Shown here: in pieces, positions 1 through 36,703 of the stretch
How positions within the stretch are numbered: position 1 is the stretch's first letter
Layout: every line of letters starts with the position of its first letter
Virus record (IMG/VR): IMGVR_UViG_3300028498_000027
Span: 1 to 36,703 of that record
From: a virus
Strand: one strand, 5' to 3'
DNA: 36,703 nucleotides
Notes under the pieces: generated by a model
Databases searched by the model: none
Told to the model about the DNA's origin: nothing
The model's input: only the letters and a program-made list of their open reading frames with translations
Program-made: the position numbers and the translations under genes

Positions 1-55
1 CCACACGCTGCACGTTCTTTTAACTTATCCAACCAATACATCTTAGCAATAGGGT
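1..55. repeat. Terminal direct repeat, copy 1 (identical to 36649..36703); overlap of a circular assembly
   Basis: Bases 1-55 (ccacacgctgcacgttc...ttagcaatagggt) match the last 55 bases of the window base for base. Confidence 0.97.
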
Positions 56-110
56 GGTCTGTGTCTTGGTAACGGTTATATAGCTGATCGACTGTATGAG
101 TGTATTTCAT
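1..110 (-). CDS. Hypothetical 53-aa protein, N-terminal part; the ORF crosses the circular junction
   Basis: ATG at 110 is preceded by GCAGGGACGCT (AGGGA SD, 4-nt spacing). It translates MKYTHTVDQLYNRYQDTDHPIAKMYWLDKLKERAAC... The ORF runs off the left edge and continues in frame at 36648 to a stop at 36597, 162 nt in total once the 55-bp overlap is collapsed. Confidence 0.35.
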   Translation of the reverse strand, partial: MKYTHTVDQLYNRYQDTDHPIAKMYWLDKLKERAAC

Positions 111-135
111 AGCGTCCCTGCTAAATTATAGGCAT

Positions 136-162
136 AAAAAAAACCCCACTCGTGAGAGTAGG
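136..162 (-). terminator. Intrinsic terminator downstream of the acidic two-gene cassette
   Basis: The minus-strand RNA reads CCUACUC-UCAC-GAGUGGG (7-bp stem with one G-U pair) followed by eight U. The mismatch on the plus strand makes it specific to the minus strand. Confidence 0.8.
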
Positions 163-234
163 ACTTGGTATTATTGGTTCGCTTTACGTAATTCTCTTAG
201 CGTATCACCAATGTATATTATTCAGGGTACTTAG

Positions 235-657
235 TCAAGTTATATCGTAATGATTAGCAAGTAGCTGCTTGCATCGCTCACTAAAGCTCATAGTGTCAGC
301 ATCGATAGCATCAAGCAATGATTGCTCTGTTTGCTTTTCTGTATTAAAGACAACCAATTTCTTTTTAGCTTTTTGACGATAATTTGCATCATAACCGGCT
401 TGTAATGACTTGCTTTTCATAGCACTTAGCACATCACTTACGATTGCAGCATCACAACTATGCTCGTCTCTACCATCTATCAAGTTGTCAATCCAGTCCA
501 TATAAGCATCTTGGCTGTCAAATTCTAGCTGAGCATAACCACCTACTGCCTCGCCTTCGCTTTCTGCTACCAAGCATATCGAGCTGTCACTATTCTCGTA
601 CTTAGCAACTGACAGCTCACCAACCTGCATATTAAATAAATATCTTTGAAATTTCAC
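235..657 (-). CDS. Hypothetical acidic protein with a ribbon-helix-helix-like C-terminal domain (candidate DNA-binding regulator)
   Basis: 140-aa ORF with a GTG start at 657, preceded by AAGGGAGAG (5-nt spacing). The N-terminal ~95 aa are rich in Asp/Glu. The C-terminal KKLVVFNTEKQTEQSLLDAIDADTMSFSERCKQLLANHY reads as a beta-strand, helix A, and an S-x-SE-capped helix B, typical of CopG/Arc-type RHH domains. This is pattern recognition only. Confidence 0.6.
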   Translation of the reverse strand: MKFQRYLFNMQVGELSVAKYENSDSSICLVAESEGEAVGGYAQLEFDSQDAYMDWIDNLIDGRDEHSCDAAIVSDVLSAMKSKSLQAGYDANYRQKAKKKLVVFNTEKQTEQSLLDAIDADTMSFSERCKQLLANHYDIT

Positions 658-659
658 AA

Positions 660-1019
660 TTACTCTCCCTTACTTTCAATGAATGACTTAACTTGCTTTA
701 CGTAGTCACTGAGTTTCGGTAGTGACTGGTCACGCTCAGACCACCCTAGATATACACGACTACTGCTTTCTTCCATGCTCTCAGTGTCGTTGTAATCCAT
801 GTCGCAAACCAAGTCATAAAATCTAACAGAGAACTCGTTTACTGCATCTTGGTTTTCATCATTCACAGAATCAGCAAGTGCCAAGCTAATCATTTCTTCA
901 TAATCAAAATCATTGTTTTTAATAGCATCATAAGCAACTAGCGGTATTGATGCGTTTAAAAAATCATCGTTAGATTTAGCGTTGTTTGCTGCGTTTAATA
1001 ACTCGTTTAAGTTTCTCAT
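660..1019 (-). CDS. Hypothetical very acidic small protein (candidate anti-defence / DNA-mimic protein)
   Basis: 119-aa ORF with ATG at 1019 preceded by AAGGAAG. By my count it has about 25 Asp+Glu against about 10 Lys+Arg. I recognise no motif. It is the first gene after a strong promoter. Confidence 0.6.
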   Translation of the reverse strand: MRNLNELLNAANNAKSNDDFLNASIPLVAYDAIKNNDFDYEEMISLALADSVNDENQDAVNEFSVRFYDLVCDMDYNDTESMEESSSRVYLGWSERDQSLPKLSDYVKQVKSFIESKGE

Positions 1020-1064
1020 GACTGACTTCCTTTTTTAATAGTATGTTTGCTTTGTATGTTTCCT

Positions 1065-1092
1065 AGTATATACTATATTAGATAGTCGTCAA
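1065..1092 (-). promoter_or_regulatory. Sigma70-type promoter TTGACG-16 nt-TATACT (candidate late PR'-like or cassette promoter)
   Basis: On the minus strand the -35 TTGACG is at 1092..1087 and the -10 TATACT at 1070..1065, with a 16-nt spacer. The hexamers are identical to the PR candidate at 7764..7792. The -10 lies inside the perfect 12-bp palindrome TAGTATATACTA (1064..1075). Confidence 0.65.
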
Positions 1093-1107
1093 GCACTGAT
1101 TCGAAAT

Positions 1108-1143
1108 TAAATAAAAATAAAGCCCTGCTGTTACACAAGGCTT
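1108..1143 (-). terminator. Intrinsic terminator immediately after the Q gene
   Basis: The minus-strand RNA reads AAGCCUUG-(8-nt loop)-CAGGGCUU (8-bp stem) followed by UAUUUUUAUUU. It starts 5 nt after the Q stop codon. Confidence 0.7.
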
Positions 1144-1148
1144 GCAAT

Positions 1149-1556
1149 CTACGCCATTTCACACTTTAAAGCATATCTCACAAAACCCTCGGCTCGTGCC
1201 AAGTGCTGATAAACAATATGCTTACTCACTTTGCGCTTACTATCTTTGCCGTACTTGATGCGAGTGAAGTGATTGTGTGCTATGTACTCAGGCTTTTGCC
1301 CCAAATAGTAATGCAAAAACACGCTGTTATAAGCATCTACGTCATCGTCTCTTAGCTCAATCAGAACCTCGTTGACTCGCATAGCATCGTCATCATTGAG
1401 CATTGCCACACTGCGATACTGTCTAGCTGTAGTCACATCGACAATCGGCGCTTTGTGCATGATAGATTCTATGTTTGACTTGTAGCTAAGATTGTCTAAT
1501 CCGCTGCGACTCCATGCACCCCATTGCTCTAGTAGCTCTACTATATTGTCAGTCAT
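1149..1556 (-). CDS. Late-gene antitermination protein Q
   Basis: 135 aa. The N-terminal LLEQWGAWSRSG motif is characteristic of the phage antitermination Q family. It is the last gene of the early-right operon and lies directly upstream of a terminator, a promoter and the packaging genes. Confidence 0.8.
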   Translation of the reverse strand: MTDNIVELLEQWGAWSRSGLDNLSYKSNIESIMHKAPIVDVTTARQYRSVAMLNDDDAMRVNEVLIELRDDDVDAYNSVFLHYYLGQKPEYIAHNHFTRIKYGKDSKRKVSKHIVYQHLARAEGFVRYALKCEMA

Positions 1557-1837
1557 TTCTTCACCTCAATTAGTCCAGCATCAACCCAGTGTTGCAACGT
1601 CTCAAAATGCGCTCTCAAAATATCCTTATAAACCGTGTCGCTCTTTACTCGTCCATCTATTGAATCGTGACAGCTTGAACACGCAAAGCAGCTCATATAA
1701 TCGGGCGGCTTAATCCCTGTACCGCAAAACTGGTTATTTCTGATGTGAGCTAAAACCACCGTTTCAGGATTATAATTGCAGCCTGTGAGCCTCAACGTGC
1801 AATTCTGGCCTCTTGCTGATTTGCGTAGCTTACTCAT
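1553..1837 (-). CDS. DUF1364 / YbcO-like Cys-rich protein of the nin region (putative nuclease)
   Basis: 94 aa. It contains RGQNCTLRLTGCNYNPETVVLAHI and CFACSSCHD, matching the DUF1364 pattern of lambdoid nin-region proteins. It has 4-nt overlaps with both neighbours. Confidence 0.7.
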   Translation of the reverse strand: MSKLRKSARGQNCTLRLTGCNYNPETVVLAHIRNNQFCGTGIKPPDYMSCFACSSCHDSIDGRVKSDTVYKDILRAHFETLQHWVDAGLIEVKK

Positions 1838-2300
1838 GATAGATACCGTCCATTGGCTGTGTTAGGCGTAAGTTATGCTTGATAGTGAAGTGATCGTAAA
1901 TAGCTTGCAGATACTCGGCCATTTGCTCTTTATTCATTAACCTGGTCACTGGTAGATCAATCGGCCTTGTCATTAGTGCAACTTTTGTCTCATAGGGCAG
2001 CGGCTCAACATCTGCCATATAGACCGCCTCGTACTCCGCATCAGCCGCGCATAGTATTGGCACACCGAACCACAACTTACATAACGCTCTGTACTGCTCG
2101 TAGGTGTAGTCCTTTTTTTGCTGCGCTACCTCGGTGAGCCATTTGTGCTGTAGGCTGTTCTGTGGCGTGCTACGTTTCACCTTTTCGCCATCTTCTTCCG
2201 TAGCTGTGTAGGGTAATGAGCGCGTCGCTAGATAAGACATATGTTTTAACCTCTCATCGTCGTTACGCACTATTCGGCTGACCTTGGTTGATTTAGTCAT
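1830..2300 (-). CDS. NinB-like recombination protein (tentative)
   Basis: The preferred start is ATG at 2300 (AGGTGG SD, 5-nt spacing, inside an ATGACTAA overlap with the upstream stop). The track start is GTG at 2309. RSTPQNSLQHKWLTEVA and MNKEQMAEYLQAIYDHF resemble lambda NinB RSLDQNRKLWACLGDVS and MRVGEFAELLELIQAFG. Confidence 0.5.
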   Translation of the reverse strand: MTKSTKVSRIVRNDDERLKHMSYLATRSLPYTATEEDGEKVKRSTPQNSLQHKWLTEVAQQKKDYTYEQYRALCKLWFGVPILCAADAEYEAVYMADVEPLPYETKVALMTRPIDLPVTRLMNKEQMAEYLQAIYDHFTIKHNLRLTQPMDGIYHE

Positions 2301-2880
2301 CAGCACCACCTGCCAAATCTATCGAGTCAAGTCTTGCGTACAACTCAGATAACGAACCTCGGTTATCAACAAAGATGTCACCTTCATTGAAATCAAGTTG
2401 CTGCTCTGATATATGGCTACCCTCAATCCCTCCACGCCCTTCCATGTGAATTAAAAACCCATGCTTGCGTATCAATTCCGCTTCATTCTCAAAACGTACA
2501 TCAGGCACGATGACGCATTGACCTGCATTACTTCTAGCGAATACATCAATCCAAAAATTACTACCAATACCATTACGGCCCCACTCAGTGCCAAGTGTTT
2601 GCAGCATATGTCGCGTCGATACACCGTATTGATTACTAGGTAGGTCTTTTGCTTCATCGCTAGTATCAACGTCTATGGCGTTAAGCATGGCTTTCATTGG
2701 GTCTGCAAACGATGCGGTTGACCAGTTGCCGCCCAGCTTATTCAGCAAGTATTTTGCGGTTGTATCCTTACCGCTTCGAGCCTTACCTGCTATACCGATT
2801 AGTCTCATTTTTTTCATAGGTAATTCTCCGAAAGTCTGTAGCGCAATATCATCATCAAACGTGCAATCAACATTACTCAT
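2293..2880 (-). CDS. P-loop kinase, dNMP-kinase-like
   Basis: Walker A motif GIAGKARSGKDT near the N-terminus and a length typical of phage deoxynucleotide monophosphate kinases. The start is uncertain. ATG at 2880 would be translationally coupled to the upstream gene. ATG at 2817 (MKKMRLIGIAG) has a better GGAGA SD. Confidence 0.65.
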   Translation of the reverse strand: MSNVDCTFDDDIALQTFGELPMKKMRLIGIAGKARSGKDTTAKYLLNKLGGNWSTASFADPMKAMLNAIDVDTSDEAKDLPSNQYGVSTRHMLQTLGTEWGRNGIGSNFWIDVFARSNAGQCVIVPDVRFENEAELIRKHGFLIHMEGRGGIEGSHISEQQLDFNEGDIFVDNRGSLSELYARLDSIDLAGGADD

Positions 2881-3049
2881 CGCCCTTACTCCCCTTAGCT
2901 CGCTCAATCAGCTTGTTTTCTTTCTCACTAGCACTTGCATCACTTGCAACTTCAAACGGCTGTACGGCTATCTCATGACCGTTTACGACCACTCTACCCA
3001 GCACCTTGCCGTCTCGGTAACTCATCATTGTTATTTTTGGCTCAATCAT
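2873..3049 (-). CDS. Hypothetical 58-aa protein (below the ORF-track length cut-off)
   Basis: My own translation is MIEPKITMMSYRDGKVLGRVVVNGHEIAVQPFEVASDASASEKENKLIERAKGSKGDE. The ATG overlaps the RusA stop (ATGA) and the stop overlaps the next ATG (ATGAGTAA). It exactly fills an otherwise non-coding gap in a tightly packed operon. Confidence 0.5.
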   Translation of the reverse strand: MIEPKITMMSYRDGKVLGRVVVNGHEIAVQPFEVASDASASEKENKLIERAKGSKGDE

Positions 3050-7024: not shown

Positions 7025-7505
7025 ATTTAAGCCCCAGTGTTAGTTGCATCTGATTCTTTATCTTCTGAATCATGCTGTTGTTTACCTTTTTATTCTTTTT
7101 GCGCTCAACCAAGCCTTTGCCGTGAAATGAACCCACAGAAAAGTCGTCGTTATCTTTTGTCTGCCAGTATTCAAGCTGCTTGGTTAATGACTTGTTTTGC
7201 TTTTCTAGGTAGATCCAGCGGTCTACAATGTCGGCTGTAAATTCAGGTGATAGCTGAGCAACGACAATCAAACTATCTCGCTTGGCTTTATCGCCACTGA
7301 ATACATAAATTTCGGTTTTGTAGGTTCTATTGTTTGCCTCTTTTAGCACGTTGCCCATTGGGGGTAATGCTATTAAGCCTCTAGCAGCAAGCCTTTCAAT
7401 ACTTTGTTTAACTTTGCTGTGATGACTGCCAGTGACAACTTCGATATCAAGACTCGTCATAGTTGCTGTATTGCTGCTAAATAAATCACTAAGTATTAAT
7501 TCCAT
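7017..7505 (-). CDS. Rha-family phage regulatory protein
   Basis: MTSLDIEVVTGSHHSKVKQSIERL matches the Rha N-terminal pattern (TSLEIAE.TGK.H..VLRDI). It is the second gene of the PR operon. Confidence 0.7.
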   Translation of the reverse strand: MELILSDLFSSNTATMTSLDIEVVTGSHHSKVKQSIERLAARGLIALPPMGNVLKEANNRTYKTEIYVFSGDKAKRDSLIVVAQLSPEFTADIVDRWIYLEKQNKSLTKQLEYWQTKDNDDFSVGSFHGKGLVERKKNKKVNNSMIQKIKNQMQLTLGLKYD

Positions 7506-7738: not shown

Positions 7739-7763
7739 AGTCACTCCTGTTTATCATTCGCTT

Positions 7764-7792
7764 AGTATATAGGTATACCTTTATTACGTCAA
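7764..7792 (-). promoter_or_regulatory. PR-like early-right promoter TTGACG-17 nt-TATACT
   Basis: On the minus strand the -35 is at 7792..7787 and the -10 at 7769..7764. The spacer contains the palindromic operator core AGGTATACCT. It lies about 20 nt upstream of the cro start. Confidence 0.7.
7767..7784. promoter_or_regulatory. Operator OR-a (ATATAGGTATACCTTTAT)
   Basis: Near-perfect 18-bp palindrome with the 10-bp perfect core AGGTATACCT. Related copies are at 7823, 8642 and 8667. Confidence 0.65.
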
Positions 7793-7841: not shown

Positions 7842-7868
7842 ATAAAGTTATAACCGATGGAGGCGACA

Positions 7869-10503: not shown

Positions 10504-10802
10504 GTATAAAGGATAGCAACCCACTAATCGTTGGCTGTAATTACCGTTACACCACGCAAGGCACTAGAAACGCCCACTTCATGCTGATTGATTTGAATTT
10601 TAACTCAGGCATGGCAAGGCTTGTAACTCGCAAATCAAAAAAGGATTTTTGGAAACCGATTGACCAGTTGATTTATATCAACAATGAAAATAATGATCGC
10701 AAAGCAAAGCGTCTTGAAAATGACGGTATAGAGTATTTGCAATCATTAATCGGCCACAAACACGCCCAGAACTGGGCTGATAGATTGGAGGTGTCAAAAT
10801 GA
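10500..10802 (+). CDS. Hypothetical protein
   Basis: 100-aa ORF with an ATGA start/stop overlap. Confidence 0.55.
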   Translation: MSIKDSNPLIVGCNYRYTTQGTRNAHFMLIDLNFNSGMARLVTRKSKKDFWKPIDQLIYINNENNDRKAKRLENDGIEYLQSLIGHKHAQNWADRLEVSK

Positions 10803-11047
10803 GATGGATTTTATTCACATCAGCATGGTTTTTTATTGGCATGTTCGTCACGCATCAGGCACTTGCCGACACGGTTATCATTGACAACAAAGAGTTCCAA
10901 GTGGTCGAAATAGACGGTCAATTGCTTGTGAGCAACGAGTGGGAGCCGACTACGATTGACGGCTATACGGACGAGTATTTGCAGTCTGAGCAGTATCAGA
11001 CGGTTAAGGTTGCGAATGAGAGCCTACGCAGAATCAAACAAAGATAA
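10799..11047 (+). CDS. Hypothetical small exported or membrane-anchored protein
   Basis: 82 aa with a GGAGG SD. The N-terminal hydrophobic segment ILFTSAWFFIGMFVTHQALA looks like a signal peptide or anchor. Confidence 0.55.
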   Translation: MRWILFTSAWFFIGMFVTHQALADTVIIDNKEFQVVEIDGQLLVSNEWEPTTIDGYTDEYLQSEQYQTVKVANESLRRIKQR

Positions 11048-15266: not shown

Positions 15267-16550
15267 GTGGCTAACAACAAATTAAAAGAGCTTGGCATCA
15301 AGACCGACTCACAAATCAAACAAGCTATCAAAGACCATGGCAGCGGTGATGAAGTTTATGCCATTCAGGGTTATAAAGGATTGAACCTTTACATTCGTGA
15401 TAATAAGACTACTACATTTAGGCATCGTTTTACTAGCCCTGATAATGGCAAACGTCGTAACTTCACTTTGGGTGCTTATCCAGTGTTCACACTTGAGCAA
15501 GCGCGTGATATGTACCGTGACAACCTATCAATGTTAAGCAGAGGCGTCGATCCAGTCACCTACTACGAGCAATTAGCAAACAAAGCCGCTGCCATGCCTA
15601 CATTCTCTCAGATGGCCAGTGAATGGTTACAAGGTCAGATAGCATCAGGTCAATTTGAGAAACGCACTATCGAGCAAAAGCGCAAGCATATTGACTATGC
15701 GTGTGAGCACATCGGGCGCATGAGCCTGGACAAGATAGGAACGCCTGACGTATTAAAGGCCATTAAGCATATCGAGCGTGAGACGATACCAACAGCTAAA
15801 CGTGTGCGCGGTGTCTGTCAAAAGATATTCGCCCTTGCTATTGGTCAAGGTTATATAGCAAGCAATCCGGCTATAGCTGTCGCTGACTTAATGCTGCCAA
15901 AGCCAAAAACCAAACATCATAGCGCGATTATTGAGCCAGTGGCTTTTGGTCAACTGCTACGTGATATTGATAATGTGACGGACTTTTACGGCCATGCTCA
16001 AAACATACTAAAACTGCAGTCGATGCTATTTCAGCGTAACGGTGATATGTGCTCGATGCGTTGGGATTGTATCGACTTTAACGATGCTACGTGGTCGTTT
16101 AATCCGCTCAAAACAGGCAATAGAACCGACATGGTGAGCAGTTTGATAGTGCCATTGCCAAGACAGGCTATCGAGCTGCTACGAGCCGTACAAGAGCAAA
16201 CAGGCGATACTGACTATGTGTTCTATAACTCACGACGCAAAGATAAATTTGAGCATCAGCAACAGCTTAACAAGTTTTTGAACCGCATTGGCTATGAGGG
16301 TATTCATATGCCGCATGGTTTTCGTGCGTCTGCTCGAACCATGCTTGTTGAACAGTTGGGAATATCCGAACAGTTGATAGAATTGCAATTAGGCCATAAC
16401 GTGCGTGATGCTAACGGTCGTGCTTATAATCGTGTGCAGCTTATTTCTGAGCGCAGGGACATGATGCAAAAATGGGCTGACTATTTAGACCAACTGTCCG
16501 GTATTCCCGAACAGTTCGTTTGTCTCTCAAAAATACATGATATTGAATAA
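15267..16550 (+). CDS. int: Tyrosine integrase, P4-type (DUF4102 arm-binding N-terminus)
   Basis: 427 aa. The N-terminal KGLNLYIRDNKTTTFRHRF...RRNFTLGAYPVFTLEQARD matches the P4-integrase N-domain pattern. Catalytic-region motifs HGFRASARTML and LGHNVRDANGRAYNR are present. It has a GTG start with no obvious SD. Confidence 0.92.
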   Translation: MANNKLKELGIKTDSQIKQAIKDHGSGDEVYAIQGYKGLNLYIRDNKTTTFRHRFTSPDNGKRRNFTLGAYPVFTLEQARDMYRDNLSMLSRGVDPVTYYEQLANKAAAMPTFSQMASEWLQGQIASGQFEKRTIEQKRKHIDYACEHIGRMSLDKIGTPDVLKAIKHIERETIPTAKRVRGVCQKIFALAIGQGYIASNPAIAVADLMLPKPKTKHHSAIIEPVAFGQLLRDIDNVTDFYGHAQNILKLQSMLFQRNGDMCSMRWDCIDFNDATWSFNPLKTGNRTDMVSSLIVPLPRQAIELLRAVQEQTGDTDYVFYNSRRKDKFEHQQQLNKFLNRIGYEGIHMPHGFRASARTMLVEQLGISEQLIELQLGHNVRDANGRAYNRVQLISERRDMMQKWADYLDQLSGIPEQFVCLSKIHDIE

Positions 16551-16620: not shown

Positions 16621-16694
16621 TGGACGGGCGGTAGGAATTGAACCTACATTAGGCTGGTGTTCCTCCAGCTGTTCTACCAATGAACCACAACCCG
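16621..16694 (-). tRNA. Degenerate tRNA-like element, probable attP core derived from a host tRNA gene; not a canonical tRNA
   Basis: The minus strand reads CGGGTTG TG GTTC ATTGGTA GAAC A GCTGG AGGAACA CCAGC CTAAT GTAGG TTCAATT CCTAC CGCCCG T CCA. The D arm, anticodon stem, variable loop and T arm are canonical. The anticodon loop has G33 and C37 (positions 34-36 read GAA). The 3' acceptor strand is 1 nt short, and only 4 of 7 acceptor pairs form. Confidence 0.4.
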
Positions 16695-36535: not shown

Positions 36536-36560
36536 CGTATGCCCTCCGGCAATTACATAT

Positions 36561-36585
36561 AAAAAAGCCCATCAATCAAGTGGGC
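36561..36585 (-). terminator. Intrinsic terminator upstream of the terminase genes
   Basis: The minus-strand RNA reads GCCCA-(9-nt loop)-UGGGC followed by U6, about 20 nt before the TerS SD. Confidence 0.6.
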
Positions 36586-36596
36586 AAACTGGTTAT

Positions 36597-36703
36597 TTAC
36601 TTGCTACACGCATCAATGATATACAGCTTATCTCTAGCATCTGCATTGCCACACGCTGCACGTTCTTTTAACTTATCCAACCAATACATCTTAGCAATAG
36701 GGT
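36597..36703 (-). CDS. Hypothetical 53-aa protein, C-terminal part (same ORF as 1..110 across the circular junction)
   Basis: In-frame continuation ...PIAKMYWLDKLKERAACGNADARDKLYIIDACSK with the stop at 36597..36599. Bases 36649..36703 duplicate 1..55. Confidence 0.35.
   Translation of the reverse strand, partial: PIAKMYWLDKLKERAACGNADARDKLYIIDACSK
36649..36703. repeat. Terminal direct repeat, copy 2 (identical to 1..55)
   Basis: Exact 55/55 identity with the window start. Confidence 0.97.

Follow-up and report, generated by a model that had tools for sequence, protein, structure and literature searches.

A probable anti-CRISPR-type operon downstream of Q in a Psychrobacter-like phage, with an AcrIF1-like domain joined to a putative autorepressor

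We analysed a viral stretch of 36,703 nucleotides (IMG/VR record IMGVR_UViG_3300028498_000027; 'the window', at its full length) and in particular two adjacent open reading frames on its minus strand, ORF119 and ORF140 (named for their lengths in amino acids), which lie between the gene for the antiterminator Q and the packaging genes. These two genes probably form an anti-CRISPR-type operon, in which ORF140 would consist of a head resembling the anti-CRISPR protein AcrIF1 and a C-terminal autorepressor, and ORF119 would be a second effector. The original prediction, made from the letters of the window, had described the locus as an acr-aca-like cassette (genes for an anti-CRISPR protein, Acr, and for an anti-CRISPR-associated regulator, Aca). 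That description is partly supported: the layout stands, whereas the roles differ, since ORF140, its N-terminal domain being a remote homologue of AcrIF1, is likely to be both effector and regulator rather than a mere aca product.

ORF140 and its AcrIF1-like head

ORF140 (positions 235–657, minus strand) begins with a GTG codon 2 nt past the ORF119 stop codon and is preceded by a strong Shine-Dalgarno sequence, AAGGGAGAG. The protein is acidic (24 Asp+Glu against 14 Lys+Arg; isoelectric point (pI) 4.5), with 17 acidic and 7 basic residues in its first 95 amino acids, in agreement with the 140-aa frame and acidic N-terminal part that had been predicted. It has no match in PADLOC, no Pfam family above cutoff and no meaningful PHROG match, exact look-ups of ORF140 and of P0005 returned no record, and its full-length relatives number five among 5.8 billion clustered proteins.

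Searched exhaustively with a profile, 1.84 billion representative sequences yielded 48 proteins, which divide cleanly into two groups. Members of one match only residues 1–82 of ORF140, and many of them are free-standing proteins of about 80 amino acids; members of the other match only residues 84–140 and are free-standing proteins of 57–79 (mostly about 60) amino acids. Because both domains exist as proteins in their own right, ORF140 is, to judge from its homologues, a two-domain fusion. The N-terminal domain is also joined to other C-terminal tails, one of which matches a NikA-like family of ribbon-helix-helix (RHH) proteins (E = 6.5e-4, below the Pfam cutoff). The free-standing N-terminal-domain proteins gave no tblastn match in phage or plasmid records.

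When a profile of the N-terminal-domain family was compared with all PDB sequences, chains of AcrIF1 (Acr30-35) were recovered at E-values from 4.2e-5 to 1.3e-3, and nothing else was significant. Comparison with AcrIF1 by hhalign gave a probability of 95.2% (E = 2.6e-8) for the whole family and 76% (E = 2.3e-5, with 34% identity from Met1) for the ORF140 subfamily alone, while BLASTP aligned the two proteins at 31% identity (E = 2e-5), pairwise identities being 31–34% over about 60 residues. The AcrIF1 family PF20829 is the Pfam family matched most often, by 7 of the 27 family members (best E = 1.7e-4), in every case below its cutoff. Since profile, hhalign and BLASTP agree while the PF20829 scores stay below cutoff, the homology to AcrIF1 appears remote but consistent, and the earlier statement that neither protein belongs to a named family holds for ORF119 but no longer for this domain of ORF140.

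Alanine substitutions of Tyr6, Tyr20 and Glu31 weaken the binding of AcrIF1 to the Csy complex (PMC5062604). These three residues align with Y6, Y20 and E32 of ORF140, and across the 27-member family position 6 is Tyr or Phe in 21 proteins, while Y20 and E32 are each present in 25. AcrIF1 itself folds as four antiparallel strands packed on two helices (PMC5062604). An AlphaFold2 (AF2) model of ORF140 has strands at residues 15–21, 27–33 and 44–46, a helix at 49–60 and then a long helix (pLDDT 76–86 over residues 11–60), and the secondary structure predicted for residues 11–60 is compatible with the AcrIF1 fold.

A HicB-like antitoxin, considered for the N-terminal domain on account of its sequence pattern, was rejected: none of the 27 members matches HicB in Pfam, and the AcrIF1 match explains the domain.

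The C-terminal domain and its putative operator

Homologues of the C-terminal domain are encoded by the last gene of small cassettes, situated after Q or after the integrase gene int, in the window as well as at each related locus that we found; free-standing examples include gp37 of Psychrobacter phage pOW20-A (our locus L032) and one in locus L031. The domain reads K-K-L-V-V-F-N-T-E, helix, S-F-S-E, helix, and the more general form K-x-V-V-x-N-P/T-E, helix, S-F-S-E, helix would fit an RHH protein.

A promoter (TTGACG-16-TATACT) with its −10 element inside a perfect 12-bp palindrome had been predicted ahead of ORF119. Both elements are indeed present: the promoter scores 10/12, and the palindrome, TAGTATATACTA at positions 1064–1075, is contained in the 13-mer TAGTATATACTAG, is the sole perfect one of its length in the genome and has no second copy there at up to 1 mismatch. 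Promoter and palindrome motifs alone are not beyond chance (promoters scoring at least 10/12 number 8 in the genome against about 10.7 expected), and we take those of the cassette as real because they are conserved across loci. An alignment of four loci shows no change in TTGAC or in the −10 region but a diverged 12-nt spacer between them, and the same promoter is found in L035.

Without a single change the 13-mer recurs in the window and five other loci of this domain type, among them L001, L004, L010 and L035; the C-terminal domains of the window and these four all carry the strand KKLV(V/S)FN. These loci vary in their first genes (for ORF119, for a zinc-ribbon protein of 151 aa or for a protein of 125–127 aa) and in their sites (after Q or after int), and identity between their Q proteins falls as low as 27%. 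Where the strand is (R/K)P(R/Q)VVLN, the domain is paired instead with TATAGTGgtCACTATA or TATAGTCATGACTATA, likewise lying over the −10 element: the free-standing domain of L031, with RPRVVLNP, has the palindrome TATAGTGgtCACTATA, and that of pOW20-A, with KPQVVLNL, has TATAGTCATGACTATA. Between L031 and L035 the Q proteins are 82% identical and the late leader is held in common, whereas operator and domain type both differ. Other inverted repeats are found where the N-terminal part of the last gene's product differs, namely TCTAACGTACGTTAGA in L007 and CCCAAAATGGG in L008. Conservation and covariation of the palindrome can be read directly from these alignments. Because it stays constant across cargo and Q types and changes with the domain type, the palindrome behaves like the operator of the C-terminal domain, as had been proposed for it; it appears to track the regulator rather than the cargo or the phage backbone, and such tracking is the behaviour of an Aca autorepressor. 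Scans of IMG/VR and the reference genomes with the promoter-plus-operator pattern returned mostly chance matches, and no new locus among them encodes the C-terminal domain.

A further motif, CATACCAAGCAA (in the window CATACAAAGCAA, positions 1040–1058, minus strand), occurs 3' of the cassette −10 element despite differing operators and regulators (L008 at about 665–690, L010 6135–6150, L031 2440–2460, L032 3510–3530 and L035 2293–2310). It may be a conserved transcript start with a role in expression or in control at the RNA level. Over the whole genome, perfect 12-bp palindromes are scarce (1 against about 9–11 expected from the dinucleotide make-up), which suggests palindrome avoidance of the kind seen in phages that face restriction enzymes.

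Cargo exchange at related loci

The cassette follows Q in the window, L003, L004, L010 and L035, and follows int in L001 and L007. All contigs that carry relatives of ORF119 or ORF140 come from the same kind of phage, with partners shuffled between loci: ORF140 relatives are preceded by ORF119, by the 151-aa zinc-ribbon protein, or by a 125–127-aa protein together with a DUF1456 protein, and ORF119 relatives are followed by ORF140 or by a 120-aa or 126-aa protein. In the same slot the DUF1456 gene is accompanied by the fusion in L010 and L035 and by the free C-terminal domain in L031. As related phages hold other cargo there or beside int, the comparison supports the view that the cassette is an accessory unit in a hot spot that separates Q from the late genes, which bears out the moron-like slot of the original prediction.

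One recurrent cargo pair consists of a 112–127-aa protein (beginning MNTS.IFKAAH.L.KATI) and an 88-aa DUF1456 protein, the gene for which is translationally coupled to the regulator gene (L004 1129–1800, L010 6173–6817, L031 2493–3391 and L035 2340–3004); both proteins are anti-defence candidates. In L011 (382–802) the ORF140 homologue is split into parts of 107 and 49 amino acids while the near-identical copy in L035 is intact, and the split comes either from a frameshift, which would make it a pseudogene, or from misassembly. In pOW20-A (L032 3554–4147), gp36, an extremely acidic protein of 135 amino acids, and gp37, a 60-aa homologue of the ORF140 tail, are both annotated as hypothetical; together they have the look of an operon of acr-aca type that went unrecognised in this isolated phage.

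Repeat-like units such as CACCGCATAGGTGGCTTAGAAA follow the cassette in L001, L004, L007 and L008/L009, and one such unit lies inside the cassette of L031; there are two to three tandem units per locus, 47–50 nt apart. Type I-F CRISPR repeats comprise a short hairpin and then CTTAGAAA, and the units look like such repeats with very short spacers. They may be RNA anti-CRISPRs or solitary repeat units; the latter have been described as RNA anti-CRISPRs (summarised in bioRxiv 10.1101/2024.01.05.574328). A search of the related loci with Rfam found no CRISPR-repeat family. We regard these units as supporting context for this class of locus and not as evidence on the window itself.

Proposed mechanism

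What we infer of the target (Cas7f in the Csy complex), DNA binding, repression and RHH fold is as follows. The strong sigma-70 promoter at 1092–1065 would fire once the DNA enters the cell, giving immediate, Q-independent expression; because the cassette is served by a separate promoter and operator ahead of the late promoter, its expression need not depend on Q. Transcription would run through ORF119 and the translationally coupled ORF140 as far as the T8 hairpin in the late leader. If it acts as AcrIF1 does, the head of ORF140 would attach to the Cas7f backbone of the type I-F Csy complex and keep the complex from binding target DNA, with ORF119 acting as a second effector beside it. The C-terminal domain, as a dimer that is probably of the RHH type, would bind TAGTATATACTAG over the −10 element and repress the operon once the protein accumulates.

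A more elaborate version, again built on analogy, would have two AcrIF1-like heads on an RHH dimer engage neighbouring Cas7f subunits and so be kept off the operator, with the output of the operon tracking the Csy complex and with ORF119 as a new anti-defence protein of a novel fold; we think it improbable as a whole. If it were true, the hot spot of the sister phages would be rich in untested inhibitors of type I-F systems of Moraxellaceae, the sources being pOW20-A gp36, the pair of DUF1456 and 125-aa proteins, and the repeat-like RNA units.

Several results weigh against the anti-CRISPR operon that we propose. Scored against PF20829, the N-terminal domain of ORF140 reaches 12.4 bits (E = 0.19) where the cutoff is 30.5, and a Foldseek search with the full-length ORF140 model returned noise and did not recover AcrIF1. 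As for the C-terminal domain, Pfam yields no RHH family for any of its 22 members at E up to 1, its profile finds no RHH chain in the PDB at E up to 10, and the AF2 model, being that of a monomer, in which a two-chain RHH ribbon cannot form, places residues 97–104 (the proposed strand) in a long helix at pLDDT 56–68. Aligned by hhalign with the RHH regulator Aca14, the domain scored 2.2% (E = 0.021), and with Aca14 plus an Inovirus homologue 4.7% (E = 0.0085); neither value is significant, and in both cases the register holds only across the strand-helix-helix. At 2–5% probability, these two comparisons do not support membership of the Aca14 family. The earlier assignment of an RHH to the last ~45 residues thus found no backing in Pfam, the PDB, Aca14 or the model, and an RHH fold with a helical N-terminal extension is at most a plausible reading. 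Finally, there are no ORF140 relatives among 185,579 reference genomes, and the window contains no CRISPR-repeat-like units.

Part of this evidence would also suit an autoregulated moron with a target other than CRISPR-Cas (another defence, superinfection exclusion or host physiology), in which an AcrIF1-like fold had been re-used: the similarity to AcrIF1 is remote and below the Pfam cutoff, ORF119 has no detectable relatives of known function, and repeat-like units are missing from the window. We nevertheless consider such a moron unlikely, as the three AcrIF1 interface residues are kept across the N-terminal-domain family, units resembling type I-F repeats are found in related cassettes, and the architecture and operator position are those of characterised acr operons.

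ORF119 as a candidate second effector

The 119-aa frame and its count of charged residues were as predicted (25 Asp+Glu and 10 Lys+Arg), amounting to a net charge of about −15 in 119 residues and a pI of 4.1. The AF2 model consists of six helices (pLDDT 86.7, pTM 0.78). Foldseek found no match to this model at E ≤ 0.001 in the PDB or BFVD, Ocr, ArdA and DNA-mimic Acr proteins included; profile searches of the PDB returned nothing, and there was no Pfam or PADLOC match and no meaningful PHROG match. Only four homologues were retrieved from the 5.8 billion clustered proteins, and no relatives were found in IMG/VR.

In L007 and L008/L009 the ORF119 homologue is the first gene of a cassette and stands behind an inverted-repeat promoter. 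The 120-aa and 126-aa partners encoded 3' of ORF119 homologues share a C-terminal domain and differ in their N-terminal parts, which to our reading look RHH-like and helix-turn-helix (HTH)-like, with no tool confirming it. A distant relative in L005 (E = 7e-6) is followed by a free-standing C-terminal domain of the ORF140 type. Because its homologues precede proteins that look like DNA binders and lie behind inverted-repeat promoters, ORF119 is most likely a second, unrelated cargo protein and another anti-defence effector, a candidate by association only. With its confident model and no known relative, it is a specific protein worth testing.

The ORF119 relative of L003, after which no gene follows in the cassette, is preceded by a separate consensus promoter that bears the palindrome ATACGCAaTGCGTAT, and no regulator gene lies downstream of it. 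Between Q and this relative (L003 2911–5099) the phage encodes a helicase (DEAD/ResIII) and a DNA methyltransferase (N6/N4). The idea that AcrIF25 or another solved Acr is encoded beside the ORF119 homologues was rejected, the C-terminal domain shared by the partners (L007, L008) having no PDB sequence match.

For ORF119 only, and compatibly with the operon proposed above, the original prediction had suggested a DNA mimic, which would inhibit restriction or CRISPR effectors. Its net charge and low pI are in keeping with this, Ocr is likewise compact and all-helical, and the homologue in L003 adjoins the helicase and methyltransferase genes. The confident model resembles neither Ocr nor ArdA nor any DNA-mimic Acr in the PDB, however; conservation is poor around many of the acidic residues, and the longest invariant block, near the C-terminus (SRVY..W..RD.SLPKLS.Y.K.V), is neutral-to-basic. 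The suggestion, which comes down to charge, fared poorly, and we hold a DNA mimic to be quite unlikely.

The two genes could also be read as a type II toxin–antitoxin or addiction module, ORF140 being an antitoxin with a C-terminal RHH (HicB- or MqsA-like) and ORF119 the toxin: the operon has two translationally coupled genes, a palindromic operator and a putative DNA-binding partner, and partners are exchanged between the loci, which is a feature of the evolution of such modules. This is very improbable, given that ORF119 and ORF140 are both strongly acidic, that no toxin, antitoxin or HicB family is matched in Pfam at E up to 10 across the 27 N-terminal-domain members, that PADLOC and PHROGs hold nothing of the kind, that AcrIF1 is the only significant relative of the N-terminal domain, and that genes of the ORF140 type occur with unrelated upstream genes and ORF119 homologues without ORF140.

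A conserved late promoter and leader beside the cassette

At the downstream end of the cassette, positions 238–136 contain a module made up of CTTGAC-17-TAnnnT, a leader with TACGCTAAG and GTAAAGCG, a hairpin with T7–8, and the box ATGCCTAtAATTTAGCAgGG. The module stands immediately upstream of a small gene and terminase in pOW20-A, L003, L005, L010, L011, L031 and L035, and recurs in these seven relatives irrespective of the upstream cassette; the T8 hairpin and downstream box are kept in pOW20-A, L005, L010, L011 and L031. Between its −35 and −10 elements the spacer barely differs from the window to L003 (Q 89% identical), and another version is common to L031 and L035 (Q 82% identical), a covariation that suggests a Q-binding element in the spacer. 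Because the module is conserved whatever the cassette and its spacer follows the type of Q, we read 238–136 as a probable Q-dependent late promoter, leader and terminator, with the cassette inserted between Q and the module. The sequence TACGCT just past the late start may be a −10-like pause signal.

This changes two points of the original prediction. Of the self-contained unit described there, the accessory cassette stands, but the interval also contains the conserved late promoter, which had been overlooked; and the U8 terminator is present but belongs to the conserved late leader and not to the cassette. As the window cassette has no terminator of its own (L004 and L010 have a separate one ahead of the late promoter), its transcripts should end at the late-leader hairpin. 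The other predicted terminator, directly after Q, was found again as a hairpin of 9 pairs, and similar hairpins follow Q in L004 and L035.

That the 1092–1065 promoter is itself the Q-dependent late promoter PR', with both ORFs as the first late genes between PR' and tR', is hardly credible and was rejected: it lies about 60 bp past the Q stop codon, as PR' does in lambda, and has terminators downstream that a Q-modified polymerase would have to cross, but it is the separate 238–136 module that is conserved before the late genes of seven relatives, whatever their cassette, and whose spacer follows the Q type, while the 1092 promoter tracks the type of C-terminal domain and in L001 adjoins int, far from Q. 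The two covariations, operator with regulator and late spacer with Q, tell the adjacent promoters apart by comparison alone.

Genome, gene order and host

The last 55 nt of the window (36649–36703) repeat its first 55 (1–55), and the window is therefore a circularly closed assembly representing a complete phage genome of 36,648 bp. Along the minus strand, genes of replication and nin type, for RusA, a deoxynucleoside monophosphate (dNMP) kinase, NinB and a YbcO/HNH nuclease, are followed by Q, ORF119 and ORF140, then by a 53-aa gene across the circle junction, a further terminator, and terminase from 36535 downward (Table 1). Homologous small genes stand ahead of terminase in L010, L011, L031 and pOW20-A. 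The further terminator, a hairpin and T-run (GCCCACTTGATTGATGGGC TTTTTT) at about 36560–36595 on the minus strand, separates the 53-aa gene from the small terminase gene; on its account late transcription must cross at least two terminators, which fits antitermination by Q.

The synteny of Psychrobacter phage pOW20-A (NC_020841) is that of the window, in the order Q, 135-aa very acidic protein, 60-aa match to the ORF140 tail, late leader, small gene and terminase. This synteny indicates a host among the Moraxellaceae, and we take the phage for a temperate one of Psychrobacter type. A megablast search of window positions 1–3000 against a phage collection gave no useful match.

Elsewhere in the window, a second TTGACG/TATACT promoter (17-nt spacer, 10/12; 7763–7792, minus strand) lies upstream of a cro-like gene at 7505 and opposite a cI-like gene at 7857; it is likely to be the early rightward promoter. 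Between the integrase gene (15267–16550) and the end of the tail gene block there is a tRNA-like sequence (Rfam tRNA, 37 bits; 16624–16694, minus strand), probably the attP core, a copy of the 3' part of a host tRNA gene; the related prophage in L001 adjoins a tRNA gene (10735–10816).

Table 1. Features of the cassette and its surroundings in the window, with corresponding sites in related loci
Feature	Positions	Strand	Basis
Antiterminator Q gene, 135 aa; upstream boundary of the cassette	1149–1556	−	PF06530 E = 6e-10; phrog_79 E = 4e-14
Terminator-like hairpin directly after Q, 9 pairs and T-rich tail	1108–1143 (hairpin 1143–1120)	−	terminator scan
Cassette promoter TTGACG-16-TATACT	1065–1092	−	score 10/12; conserved across loci
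Putative operator, 13-bp TAGTATATACTAG over the −10 element	1063–1075	.	identity across loci
DNA fragment bearing the putative operator, CCTAGTATATACTAGG			
ORF119, acidic all-helical protein, candidate anti-defence effector	660–1019	−	ATG start; AF2 model; association
ORF140 N-terminal domain (aa 1–82), remote AcrIF1 homologue	412–657	−	profile; hhalign; BLASTP
ORF140 C-terminal domain (aa 84–140), RHH-like putative autorepressor, Aca-like	238–408	−	free-standing homologues; operator covariation
Conserved late promoter TTGACT-17-TACATT, PR'-like, overlapping the ORF140 stop codon	210–238	−	score 9/12
tR'-like hairpin and T8 terminator, 11 pairs; also ends cassette transcripts (predicted)	136–166 (hairpin 166–141)	−	terminator scan
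First late gene, 53 aa, preceding terminase	1–110, wraps to about 36597–36648	−	wrapped translation
Late-leader module in related loci	L003 5795–5872; L005 505–650; L010 7385–7526; L011 790–1040; L031 3560–3760; L032 4140–4278		
Repeat-like units in related loci	L001 10457–10560; L004 2240–2370; L007 2760–2840; L008 1477–1555; L031 3050–3076		

Comparison with known systems

The first 60 residues of ORF140 align from Met1 with AcrIF1 of Pseudomonas phage JBD30 (PF20829, encoded in the acrIF1-aca1 operon), sharing the pattern MKFxxYL...A.YEN...E...G..VG...FDS....W, with the three functional residues kept and a compatible order of strands and helices. Like acrIF1-aca1, ORF140 belongs to a small operon with a strong promoter and a repressor function (predicted in the case of ORF140). 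Unlike AcrIF1 it is about 31–34% identical to that protein, scores below the Pfam cutoff and comes from a phage of Moraxellaceae type and not from a Mu-like phage of Pseudomonas. It is also fused to its regulator, whereas AcrIF1 is followed by the separate HTH protein Aca1, and its locus lies after Q, whereas the acrIF1 locus lies within the head genes.

AcrIE10, from Klebsiella plasmids, is a bifunctional RHH-Acr fusion that represses its own promoter; its Acr domain is aimed at Cas7, its RHH part binds an inverted repeat in that promoter, and the output of its operon was recently shown to follow the amount of CRISPR complex (PMC13530269). ORF140 is similar in joining an Acr-like part and a putative autorepressor in one polypeptide, and in being the second gene of a two-gene operon. 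The RHH is N-terminal in AcrIE10, whereas the putative regulator is the C-terminal part of ORF140, and the Acr domains are unrelated; AcrIE10 acts on type I-E*, no sequence likeness of ORF140 to it was detected, and the C-terminal domain has no PDB match.

Aca14, an RHH protein of Pasteurella multocida, binds an AT-rich inverted repeat over the −10 element (bioRxiv 10.64898/2026.07.27.740549). The free-standing homologues of the C-terminal domain are like it in their length of about 60–67 amino acids, helical N-terminal extension and strand-helix-helix pattern, the two AT-rich −10 repeats can be set side by side (TGTATATG..CATATACA for Aca14 and TAGTATATACTA for the cassette), and both regulators accompany variable anti-defence cargo. 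Unlike Aca14, which the domain approaches at only 2–5% by hhalign, short of family membership, it is here fused to an Acr-like domain. The HTH-type Acr-Aca fusions AcrIIA1, AcrIIA13-15 and AcrIF24 follow the same logic of an anti-CRISPR that represses its own promoter; they differ from ORF140 in using an HTH and in their unrelated Acr domains.

The late region is like the lambdoid Q/PR'/tR' arrangement in having Q, a conserved promoter with a short leader, a strong terminator, late genes and accessory insertions; unlike the lambdoid region, it has no lysis genes between Q and terminase. The lambdoid late region carries morons such as stx, the expression of which is Q-dependent. The cassette, in contrast to stx, comes before the late promoter and has a promoter and operator to itself, with expression that need not depend on Q.

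Acr-Aca fusions are already known, those of HTH type and more recently those of RHH type (AcrIE10 and reportedly AcrIF25); in the literature that we searched there was no AcrIF1-type Acr-Aca fusion. ORF140 is therefore no new kind of system, and adds an AcrIF1-type fusion to the known Acr-Aca fusion operons. If our reading is true, the C-terminal domain and its operator would represent a new family of Aca-like regulators, and hence a guilt-by-association handle on anti-defence genes in phages of Psychrobacter and other Moraxellaceae, and the AcrIF1 family would reach well beyond Pseudomonas phages, fused here to an autorepressor.

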